Both the position numbers and the translations under genes were made by a program. From Escherichia phage ECO103 4-12-1: DNA of 64,000 bases. Below the pieces are notes generated by a model that worked only from the letters and a program-made list of their open reading frames with translations, was not told the origin of the DNA and searched no databases. Every line of letters begins with the position of its first letter. Positions within the stretch are counted from its first letter, which is position 1. Location of the stretch: the sequence record OR844650; one strand, written 5' to 3'. Shown here in pieces: positions 4,424-7,478 of the stretch.

Positions 4424-6565
4424 ATGGCAGTATTTTCTAATTTTGAAGGAACTATGCAGCCCAAATTCATATTGGGGAAAAAAGGTGCTTCAATAAATTT
4501 TATCAATGATTCAGTTTCTATAAAAGATTATCTAGGAGAACAGTTCCTACCACTGAAGGTAGGAACTTCATCTGACCCTAATTCAGCAGTTAACGTAAAA
4601 TATCTTGAAGATAACCCTAATGCATTATTTGGTGTTGTACCCCCTACCGATGATGTAGGAAAGAACAATAATACGTATTTTCAAATTGATGAAGATGGTA
4701 TTGTTGATATTTTTGCAAAAAGTAATGGTACATGGGTAAAATCATTATACATTAATAAAAAAGTTCTATCCAGTAAAAATGGTGGCGATTTCATCGGACT
4801 TATTACTGGAGGTACAGTTCAACAGGCCCAGTTTTATATAACACCAGAAGAATTTGGTGCTAAAGGTGATGGCGAAACTGATGACACTGCTGCTGTAAAT
4901 TTATGTGCTGCTTATGCTAAAGAAAATAAAATCCAAATTCAGGCTGGTGGTAATTACCGTATCAAAACTGCAATATACCTGGAAGATGTAACTTGGTTTG
5001 GGGGAACTATTACTGGTAATGGTGGTACTATGGTATCCGTTATTAATTCCCAAATACAATTTGCAACACTTACTGGATGTTATTTAAAATTCTTCGGTGG
5101 CGATGGTAAGTTTTATTTTAATAAATTTATAAACATCACAAGTACTGCTGCATTTTTAATGCAAGGTATGACACAACCAGGAACAATAGATTTTTGCTTT
5201 AATGAAATGACCCAATGTAAGTATGGTGTTCTTCAACAAGGTACTGGTGAGAAAATGAAGGTTGGTAGATATTCATATAACCACATACATGATATATATG
5301 GTGATGCAATTGAACTAAACGTAATTAACTCACATTATCCTGATGGTTTTGTGATTGAAGGAAACGTAATTGAAAACGTTGATGGTTCTAACGCTCCAAT
5401 CCCACTTTCAAACTGGGGCATTGGTATTGGCGTTGCTGGTTCTGGTCCTTATGGTTTAGATGCACCAGATACACAATATGTCAGAAACTTTGTTATTAAA
5501 AATAACAGACTATATAATGTTAGACAATGTATCCACGTTGAATTAGGAATGGACTTTAAAATACTTAATAATGAAGTTTATCCATCATCTTTAGTTTCTG
5601 TTGGTACTGGATTAACCACTGCTGGTGTTATAACTTATGGTTCGAAAGAATTCATTATTGATGGGTTGACTGGTCATTTGCTTAATGATCCTTCTATCAC
5701 AAATAGAATGGTTTCAATAAACTGGGGTGTAACTTCTGGTCGTTTTGCTGGACCACCTAGAAACTTTAAAATTTCTAATCTCTATATTCCAGAGTCTTCT
5801 ATACTTGTTTATACTTCCGGTTCTGATAATTGGTTAAATAATACAGAATTGAGCAATATCACCTGTTCTAAAATCCTTTGGCGTGGTTTGCCATCATCAT
5901 CTAAATTTAGTGATATTAGAACTAAAGAATTAGATGTAATTGGTCAACACCTCTCTACCGAAGGCGAAGGTGGTGGTATCTATACTCGCTCTAAATATAC
6001 TTATACTAATTGGACTAACTGTGTTGTTCAAGATGATTGTAATGTTTCAAAATATAGTTTTTCTAAAATGTATGTAGACAGAATAGACCAATCATCTAAT
6101 AACTTTAAAGTTACAACTGCAATCGATGGTACAGGACACCGTGGCCCAGTACTGATACCTGTAGTTGAGCAATATTATATTCCATACGATACTTTTCCTG
6201 GGGGACGCTATTTCTCTGAAGGCACGATTATTCATAAACAATCGGGTGGAAAATATATTGTAACTGTTGGTGGTTCTTTTTTCGGAAAATATGACACAAT
6301 TAGACAAACGGTAGCAGGACAAACATACATAGAAGCATTGGGTGTGTCATGGGGTGAAAACCAATATGCAAAAGCTGCTGGTACTGAGATCATTATATCC
6401 GGTGCTGGTGAAAATGGTGGTGATTTGAGAACGTATATAACTCGTGCAGTGTATGTTGTAAACAACGTATATAGAATTGATATTGCAGATCCTATCATAA
6501 CAGCAACTGCCGCTGGTGCAGCATTAAAAGCTGCCCAACCCGTAACTTACATAACCCTACCATAA
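4424..6565 (+). CDS. tailspike with pectate-lyase-like beta-helix (putative capsule depolymerase)
   Basis: FGAKGDGETDDTAAVN motif typical of pectate-lyase-fold tailspikes; N-terminal ~60 aa shared with the next gene. Confidence 0.8.
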   Translation: MAVFSNFEGTMQPKFILGKKGASINFINDSVSIKDYLGEQFLPLKVGTSSDPNSAVNVKYLEDNPNALFGVVPPTDDVGKNNNTYFQIDEDGIVDIFAKSNGTWVKSLYINKKVLSSKNGGDFIGLITGGTVQQAQFYITPEEFGAKGDGETDDTAAVNLCAAYAKENKIQIQAGGNYRIKTAIYLEDVTWFGGTITGNGGTMVSVINSQIQFATLTGCYLKFFGGDGKFYFNKFINITSTAAFLMQGMTQPGTIDFCFNEMTQCKYGVLQQGTGEKMKVGRYSYNHIHDIYGDAIELNVINSHYPDGFVIEGNVIENVDGSNAPIPLSNWGIGIGVAGSGPYGLDAPDTQYVRNFVIKNNRLYNVRQCIHVELGMDFKILNNEVYPSSLVSVGTGLTTAGVITYGSKEFIIDGLTGHLLNDPSITNRMVSINWGVTSGRFAGPPRNFKISNLYIPESSILVYTSGSDNWLNNTELSNITCSKILWRGLPSSSKFSDIRTKELDVIGQHLSTEGEGGGIYTRSKYTYTNWTNCVVQDDCNVSKYSFSKMYVDRIDQSSNNFKVTTAIDGTGHRGPVLIPVVEQYYIPYDTFPGGRYFSEGTIIHKQSGGKYIVTVGGSFFGKYDTIRQTVAGQTYIEALGVSWGENQYAKAAGTEIIISGAGENGGDLRTYITRAVYVVNNVYRIDIADPIITATAAGAALKAAQPVTYITLP

Positions 6566-6581
6566 AGGAGATTATATTAAA

Positions 6582-7478
6582 ATGGCAGTTTTTTCTAATT
6601 TAGAAGGAACCATGAAGAAGTCCTTCATTCTTGGGAAGAATGGTGCACAGATTACCACAAATGGTAGTGTTGTGCAAATTCAAAACTACTCAGGAACACA
6701 ACTTCTTCCAATTTCAGCAGGTGAACCAACTGCAAACACACACTTGGTTACATTAGGATATTTAAACGCACACAGTGGTGGTGGTAGTTCTGGTATCTTA
6801 CGTGGAACAACAGCACCATCCGATTCGATCGGTCTAGATGGTGACGTTTACTTTTTGGTTGATAGTACTAATGTTCTTCAAATTTATATTAAAGATCTTG
6901 GTATTTGGAAACCATTTAAAGGTAGCTCACCTGGGACTGATAGCTCATATGTAACTACTGAAATAGTTCCTGTTTCTGCATTTACATTAGTGCCAGATAC
7001 TACTGATCATTATACTTACACACTACCAGAATCAGTTCATGGTAGAGGTTCTGATATTATGATCCAACTACAAGGTGACCCAGGTAATGTTGCATTGGAA
7101 TCAGTATTCCAAACCACAGTAACAGTTAGTGGTATTGGGGATATAACAATTGATGTGATTGGTCAAATCACAGATTATGCAAGTGTTAAAGTAAACATTA
7201 TAGGAGCAACAACAATGACAGTACCTTATAGTAAATTGGTAAACCAAGCAGATTGGGTTTCTAGTGATGGTGATTTTACAATCACTATTCCTGCATCTGA
7301 ACACAATCAAACACCAGATAATTTGTATATTTCAATTTATGCAAATAAAACACCTGGGAGTGTTTCGTCATCTCCATTTGAATTGGTAGTGACTGATACA
7401 CAAATTAGTAGTACTGGTGATGTAATCTTCACTTCTGATATTTCTTTCAGTGGTAAGATTGTCATCTCTGGTAAGTAA
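6582..7478 (+). CDS. tail fibre/spike protein with shared N-terminal anchor domain
   Basis: N-terminus MAVFSNLEGTM..FILGK matches that of the 4424 gene; GGAG RBS. Confidence 0.7.
   Translation: MAVFSNLEGTMKKSFILGKNGAQITTNGSVVQIQNYSGTQLLPISAGEPTANTHLVTLGYLNAHSGGGSSGILRGTTAPSDSIGLDGDVYFLVDSTNVLQIYIKDLGIWKPFKGSSPGTDSSYVTTEIVPVSAFTLVPDTTDHYTYTLPESVHGRGSDIMIQLQGDPGNVALESVFQTTVTVSGIGDITIDVIGQITDYASVKVNIIGATTMTVPYSKLVNQADWVSSDGDFTITIPASEHNQTPDNLYISIYANKTPGSVSSSPFELVVTDTQISSTGDVIFTSDISFSGKIVISGK

Follow-up and report, generated by a model that had tools for sequence, protein, structure and literature searches.

A probable chimeric colanidase tailspike of an Asteriusvirus jumbo phage and the N-terminal module that it shares with a conserved Rak2-like virion protein

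Results

Two adjacent genes at the locus

We analysed a 64,000-nucleotide stretch of Escherichia phage ECO103 4-12-1 (sequence record OR844650; hereafter the window, to which positions refer unless another record is named), and focus on two adjacent open reading frames (ORFs), ORF713 and ORF298, whose products begin alike. The original prediction described them as a swappable cassette, in which a beta-helix tailspike and a second receptor-binding protein share a near-identical N-terminus of about 30 residues. We provide evidence that ORF713 is probably a chimera that combines a paralogue of the N-terminal module (N-module) of ORF298 with a colanidase, and that ORF298 belongs to the conserved core of virion proteins. 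In DNA, region 3200-7700 matches Escherichia phages vB_EcoM_phAPEC6 and SHEFM2K at 100% identity; for 121Q and PBECO4 the figure is 99.2-99.3%. The window belongs to an Asteriusvirus jumbo coliphage of the phAPEC6/121Q/PBECO4 type, all of these phages being 350-kb jumbo myoviruses of the genus Asteriusvirus, in the Rak2-like group, and the genome is AT-rich (about 34% guanine plus cytosine, G+C). The ORF713 DNA is 100% identical to the phAPEC6 and SHEFM2K copies, where the annotation reads 'colanic acid degradation protein'; both ORFs are intact in phAPEC6 and identical to the annotated SHEFM2K genes. The features of the locus are as follows (aa, amino acids).

4424..6565, + strand: ORF713, probable chimeric colanidase tailspike gene, 713 aa; orthologue of PBECO4 ORF547 / 121Q 573
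4424..4744, + strand: N-module of ORF713, residues 1-107; BLASTP E = 2e-19, profile hidden Markov model (HMM) E = 1e-40
4745..6562, + strand: colanidase body of ORF713, residues 108-713, right-handed beta-helix, WcaM-like PF27800; match to PDB 6E0V/6E0W
6582..7478, + strand: ORF298, Rak2-like virion structural protein, 298 aa; orthologue of CBB_227, GAP32_221 and 121Q 572
6582..6917, + strand: N-module of ORF298, residues 1-112, with sub-modules A (~1-55) and B (~56-111)
6939..7475, + strand: C-terminal beta-sandwich domains of ORF298, M (~120-208) and C (~209-298)
3282..4409, + strand: upstream 'tail protein' gene gp253; phrog_13565 E = 4e-225
7486..7514, + strand: terminator-like hairpin at the end of the gp253-ORF713-ORF298 group, with a 13-bp stem and then a T run

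The shared N-terminal module

Both reading frames were found as predicted, together with the quoted N-termini, MAVFSNFEGTMQPKFILGKKGA and MAVFSNLEGTMKKSFILGKNGA, and the string GDGETDDTAAVN, which is ORF713 residues 148-159. The homology of the N-termini stands (BLASTP E = 2e-19), and it is not merely compositional, this value having been obtained with composition-based statistics; the limit of about 30 residues does not stand, as the similarity reaches approximately residue 107. Identity is highest at the start (17/22, or 77%, over residues 1-22), falls to 24/87 onward to a conserved tryptophan, and amounts to 41/109 (38%) over the module as a whole. This tryptophan, in a Trp-x-Lys motif, closes the shared module (W104 in ORF713, W109 in ORF298); homology to ORF298 stops at W104-K106, and the two proteins diverge completely only past about residue 107. 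The M and C beta-sandwich domains of ORF298 are absent from ORF713 by BLASTP between the two. ORF713 therefore has only the module in common with the ORF298 family (phrog_10468) and is not a full member of it.

The two modules form a closed pair in the window. Searching the whole window with the N-terminus by tblastn recovered the other copy (E = 1.5e-20), and neither N-terminus found a third. A profile HMM built from the module was run on all 196 six-frame ORFs that are 60 aa or longer and matched only ORF713 and ORF298 (E = 6e-58 and 1e-40), with the next best ORF at E = 0.22. Across 34 sequences spanning both paralogue clades 17 columns are invariant, and conservation is strongest in the extreme N-terminal peptide and part A, above that of the trimerisation-like part B.

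Part A (approximately residues 1-55) consists of an N-terminal peptide, MAVFSNxEGTM, that is nearly invariant, and a three-strand beta-meander; part B (approximately residues 56-111) has one helix and four strands. The first 10 residues have low confidence in AlphaFold2 models though they are nearly invariant, a pattern that fits a peptide ordered only on a partner. Part B resembles the trimerisation unit of collagen XV/XVIII (multiplexin), with weak fold matches from monomer models (Z at most 5.4, over 42 residues).

The isolated module matched nothing in Pfam or NCBIfam, and the profiles of the P22 head-binding domain (PF09008) and the T7 fibre N-terminus (PF03906) did not match ORF713 residues 1-110. 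The module likewise gave no match to PF18668 and no fold match to the T4 gp10-like (XD) or CBA120 TSP D1 domains. It appears to be an undescribed family with an adaptor-like role as in known systems.

The body of ORF713 is homologous to a colanidase

Residues 96-712 of ORF713 match the colanidase tailspike gp150 of phage Phi92 (PDB 6E0V/6E0W; phmmer E = 1.8e-235) over chain residues 11-623 of 626, which bears out the earlier identification as a beta-helix tailspike-type depolymerase. The match to phrog_6117 (E = 3e-264) covers residues 90-711 only, the body is 57% identical to that of the Justusliebigvirus muut orthologue, and PF27800 is assigned, in precomputed form, to all close homologues of the body. 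The similarity to the NCBIfam WcaM model (E = 2e-26) reaches 92 bits against a cut-off of 795, and it is from this sub-threshold similarity that the common annotation 'colanic acid biosynthesis protein' stems. The ORF713 body (108-713) is homologous to gp150 end to end. Phi92-type proteins differ in being about 804 aa long with another N-terminus of about 200 residues (PF26208), where ORF713 has the 107-residue Rak2-type module.

Kim et al. reportedly found in 2015 that the purified PBECO4 enzyme acts in trans. PBECO4 ORF547 is the orthologue of ORF713: the two agree in all of their first 110 aa, and the region is 99.2% identical in DNA. Phi92 gp150 cleaves colanic acid by hydrolysis of its beta-1,4 Glc-Fuc bond (PMC13450770), and PMC10059673, with reference to Kim et al. 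2015, cites PBECO4 gp547 for colanic acid degradation. By analogy with this orthologue and with gp150, from whose literature an activity of ORF713 would follow, ORF713 likely cuts colanic acid and not a K-type capsule. Because ORF713 is orthologous to PBECO4 ORF547, with its reported colanic-acid-degrading activity, the tailspike and its probable substrate were already known, and the published work on PBECO4 in effect includes, for this orthologue, the depolymerase assay proposed with the original prediction.

ORF298 is a conserved core virion protein

ORF298 matches phrog_10468 (E = 1.5e-100). Its homologues fall into 73 clusters, all of 284-309 aa save one fragment, and 72 of them cover 100% of the query. 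The place of the orthologue in the gene order does not change among phages of Cronobacter, Pectobacterium, Xanthomonas, Salmonella and Klebsiella, with synteny confirmed in GAP32, CBB, XbC2 and Munch, and the CBB orthologue, CBB_227, was found by virion mass spectrometry (PMC5259590). ORF298 is a conserved single-copy core virion protein of every Rak2-like genus.

Between genera, the M and C domains are 40-49% identical, the N-module 56-69% and neighbouring core proteins 58-84%. Within the genus the hypervariable gene is not ORF298 but the adjacent fibre gene of 1841 aa, whose middle part is 31-48% identical. No receptor-binding fold was recognised in ORF298. Comparisons of its C domain with gp250c (tblastn E = 0.27, hhalign E = 0.29) and of its M domain with its C domain (E = 0.52) were not significant.

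Phyletic pattern and origin of the fusion

A tblastn search of 50,697 phage records with either N-module found it in 70 records, all of them Rak2-like, with two copies in 34. The two-copy records listed are E. coli phages together with records that bear the label Salmonella SD-* and are nearly identical; phages of all other genera have a single copy. Compared with the ORF298 module this copy shows 54-69% identity, against only 33-40% with the ORF713 module; ORF298 is therefore the ancestral bearer. With four N-terminal queries against sequenced phages, the only match outside the two known slots of Rak2-like phages was a weak one, in Salicola phage SCTP-2.

The gene order in GAP32, CBB, XbC2 and Munch is tail protein, ORF298 orthologue, long fibre, and only in Asteriusvirus is a colanidase gene added. 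In the E. coli lineage the colanidase gene is an insertion that separates ORF298 from the gene for the tail protein. At all four loci examined from the 34 two-copy records the same colanidase occupies this slot, and no other distal domain was found there.

In a midpoint-rooted neighbour-joining distance tree of about 110 columns, the colanidase-linked modules (the window, ph0011, BF17, A4-like phages, JNE01 and the metagenomic protein P0079) form one clade apart from the ORF298 modules, and all of them have the same joint, W-[VI]-K-S-x-Y-[IV]. This single clade and common joint indicate one old fusion of anchor and colanidase, followed by vertical descent. The two N-modules, at 38% identity, are old paralogues. 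Gene conversion between the two 5' ends was considered and rejected: the first 66 nucleotides agree at 50-55 positions within a genome and at 49-55 between genomes.

Both halves of ORF713 recur in other combinations

The colanidase body occurs in 253 phage records from several unrelated groups. It stands behind at least five other N-termini, namely PF09008, PF03906, PF18668 (TSP1/gp66), PF26208 (Phi92 type) and PF12571, and some copies have no N-terminal extension at all. The homology of the colanidases with other N-termini to ORF713 always starts at residues 96-138; in one comparison it begins at residues 96-115. The joint lies just upstream of a segment, YxxKxxLSS...GL...TPExFGAxGDG, that is constant across adaptors. 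The beta-helix body appears to be horizontally mobile. The P22 (PF09008) and T7 (PF03906) tailspikes offer a parallel, as the same colanidase body stands behind those adaptors in other phages; the adaptor of ORF713 differs in belonging to no described family.

Two variants of the colanidase gene were also observed. In phage vB_Ec-M-J the gene (locus L010, 7001-9143) is interrupted inside the beta-helix and annotated as two 'colanidase tailspike' coding sequences (CDSs), at 7001-8083 and 8088-9143. P0124, a 201-aa protein from a 36.8-kb E. coli third-party annotation (TPA) contig, is otherwise identical to ORF713 but lacks approximately residues 153-665, the whole beta-helix core; either a deletion mutant or an error of assembly could account for it.

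The anchor is modular as well. A search with a profile of the module alignment against an index of 5.8 billion proteins returned only nine, mostly fragments; when 1.84 billion representative proteins were searched with the profile and no index, 538 matches at E ≤ 0.001 resulted. The module occurs by itself as ORF061 of RaK2 and K64-1 (115 aa; RaK2 locus L003, 7001-7348), with the C domain as P0123 (205 aa, in the canonical slot), with M and C as ORF298, with the colanidase as ORF713, and with the colanidase and C as P0079 (792 aa; locus L011, 6320-8698, Logan contig of SRR31729320). The last 92 residues of P0079 match ORF298 residues 207-298 (E = 1e-12), and its locus differs from the ORF713 slot in lying just before a thymidylate synthase gene; the contig begins within the fibre gene. 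RaK2, K64-1 and other Alcyoneusvirus phages have only the bare 115-aa module; the remainder of ORF298, the long fibre gene and the gene after it are missing, losses that one contiguous deletion would explain.

By profile search the module itself splits in two. Without the rest of the module, positions 1-66 head further long proteins, starting at residue 1 in every case. These comprise a right-handed beta-helix protein of 705 aa, a fibre of 780 aa that has an S74 intramolecular chaperone, a 299-aa immunoglobulin-like protein and six BNR/sialidase-like proteins (1204-1366 aa), of which two have a CBM5/12 match as well. A single 120-kb contig of an uncultured Rak2-like phage (Logan SRR18476386_53; loci L013 and L015) encodes both the 705-aa and the 780-aa protein, which flank three conserved structural genes (902, 199 and 919 aa) at another genomic locus, one similar to Erwinia phage pEa_SNUABM_12 near 75 kb. 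Positions 65-112 form a motif that recurs 5-15 times within each of hundreds of long proteins, and collagen triple-helix repeats are also present in several of these. The part of the original prediction that saw in the shared N-terminus a reusable adaptor is borne out across the family: the resemblance is a true homologous module, the colanidase is joined to five or more further kinds of N-terminus, and beta-helix, S74 and BNR proteins begin with the first ~66 residues of the module.

The gene neighbourhood

The genes gp253, ORF713 and ORF298 follow one another with intergenic gaps of 14-16 nucleotides, and Shine-Dalgarno-like motifs precede ORF713 (GGGAGG, 4410-4415) and ORF298 (AAGGAG, 6565-6570). 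Because of these gaps after gp253 and the strong hairpin at 7486-7514 after ORF298, ORF713 and ORF298 are probably co-produced from one tight group, gp253-ORF713-ORF298-terminator. gp253 is conserved beside the N-module gene in every Rak2-like phage examined, and its product, a candidate docking partner, is abundant in phAPEC6 virions (65.6% coverage). It has short collagen-like G-X-Y runs, with a sub-threshold match to Pfam Collagen. Homology of the module to gp253 was examined and rejected (hhalign E = 0.29).

DNA similarity to BF17-like phages stops at about window position 7524 (query position 4325), at the hairpin 3' of ORF298, which suggests a recombination boundary there, ahead of the gene for the 1841-aa fibre. 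This fibre gene (7616-13141) is highly repetitive and contains many long antisense ORFs on the minus strand (for example 7546-8289, 9007-9555 and 11137-11790) that look like by-products of gene composition. Farther along, at approximately 16000-17000, gene orientation changes from plus to minus past a 654-aa ORF; thymidylate synthase is encoded at 16069-16998 on the minus strand, and the cumulative GC skew falls from about here.

Discussion

We consider it probable that ORF713 is a chimeric tailspike, composed of a ~107-residue old paralogue of the ORF298 N-module and a ~606-residue colanidase of the Phi92 gp150 type, and mounted on the virion via the module. For the two modules we infer docking, trimerisation, a partner and a site. 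Part A (~1-55) would dock both ORF713 and ORF298 on the virion, and part B (~56-111) would trimerise and set the register of the trimer for the distal part. The fusion may have let an ancestor of Asteriusvirus mount an enzyme that cuts colanic acid through an attachment already at hand. ORF298 would have remained the resident bearer of the module, with ORF713 mounting the colanidase alongside it.

Variable distal enzymes on conserved N-terminal assembly domains are established for CBA120, G7C, K1-5 and RaK2 (PMC10253068). The branched tailspikes of CBA120 (TSP1-4) and RaK2 (gp526-gp534) resemble the present case in that their distal domains vary and the N-terminal domains shared by paralogues assemble on the particle (PMC10253068). 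The module differs in lying outside the CBA120/RaK2 N-terminal families.

Several observations weigh against a virion-mounted chimera. The virion proteome of phAPEC6 lists gp250c, gp251c, gp253 and gp256, and not gp254 or gp255. The phAPEC6 record (MK817115; locus L002, 7225-10276) lists neither CDS, its tags jumping from gp253 to gp256, and the two proteins may not have been searchable. In the widespread JNE01-type allele, a one-nucleotide insertion 13 codons past the joint (locus L009, 7001-9143; approximately window position 4780) splits the gene into a 141-aa anchor-only ORF and an anchor-less colanidase ORF of 597 aa with a GTG start, and the anchor-only cluster (P0125) is found on 28 contigs. 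The split could be a real allele, a frameshifting site or a repeated sequencing error, and the colanidase may work unanchored. Additionally, two modules with 38% identity could each have come to use a different site, and the fold matches of the module are weak.

The original prediction would have ORF713 and ORF298 be two alternative receptor-binding proteins that compete for one virion site, or take turns at it, through an identical adaptor and are readily exchanged by recombination, giving the phage two specificities. The module is truly shared, down to 17 invariant positions, part A is joined to varied distal domains in metagenomic relatives, and, within ORF298, M and C have changed faster than the N-module, and faster than the neighbouring core proteins. 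However, ORF298 retains one full-length layout in 72 of its 73 clusters, whatever the host genus, unlike a specificity cassette, and contains no recognised receptor-binding fold, and the hypervariable gene of the genus is the adjacent fibre. With only the colanidase in the first slot at every Asteriusvirus locus examined, and no other distal domain there, the notion of a swappable cassette of two alternative receptor-binding proteins is not supported. Exchange by recombination fares no better, as the modules are old paralogues with no sign of concerted evolution or gene conversion. Taken whole, we regard this account as unlikely.

A second account, which we judge rather improbable, treats the module as a unit of oligomerisation and folding only; the colanidase would be set free in soluble form when the cell lyses and would remove colanic acid from cells nearby, and ORF298 would reach the particle by another route. 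The resemblance of residues ~56-111 to a trimerisation unit, which is a generic fibre repeat, favours it, as do the missing entry for ORF713 in the phAPEC6 virion proteome, the anchor-less colanidase ORF of the JNE01-type allele and the action in trans reported for the PBECO4 enzyme. Yet the best-conserved part of the module is the N-terminal peptide with part A, not part B, and part A always opens long fibre- or spike-like proteins at residue 1, where a particle-binding domain would be expected. Elsewhere the homologous body follows recognised particle-binding domains (P22 head-binding, T7 fibre N-terminus), and RaK2 keeps an intact ORF consisting of the module only.

More speculatively, and with little probability in our estimation, the module could be a general attachment 'plug' of Rak2-like phages for a repeated particle site, such as the 'hairy' appendage rings on the tails and capsids of phAPEC6 and CBB, or a baseplate socket next to gp253. 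If so, this site would bear ORF298, the colanidase and the sialidase-like and other beta-helix proteins of relatives, enzyme would decorate the virion of Asteriusvirus at many positions, and anchor-only ORFs (RaK2 ORF061 and the 141-aa ORF of JNE01) would cap empty sockets. That the N-terminal resemblance reflects composition or chance, or a recent local duplication or gene-conversion tract of no functional meaning, as the AT-rich genome and the nearly identical first 33 nucleotides of both genes might suggest, is refuted by the composition-corrected E value, the reciprocal profile detection of both modules, the same invariant residues retained across genera, and a 66-nucleotide identity no higher within than between genomes, and we give it virtually no weight.

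The reading of ORF713 as an anchored chimera does not change thinking on the evolution of phage receptor-binding proteins. It is a clean example of a known pattern, tail enzymes built from interchangeable parts, here a characterised enzyme on an undescribed anchor module. The analysis corrects the 'colanic acid biosynthesis protein' annotation, and it brings to light that two intact ORFs are unlisted in the phAPEC6 reference record and thus perhaps could not be searched in the virion proteome. The enzyme is known and already used; what is new is the family-wide adaptor and its sharp joint at approximately residue 107 of ORF713. This joint marks a graft point for a foreign depolymerase on the particle of Asteriusvirus or other Rak2-like phages, and the series of architectures (N, N+C, N+M+C, N+enzyme+C and N+enzyme) represents the grafts that evolution has tolerated.

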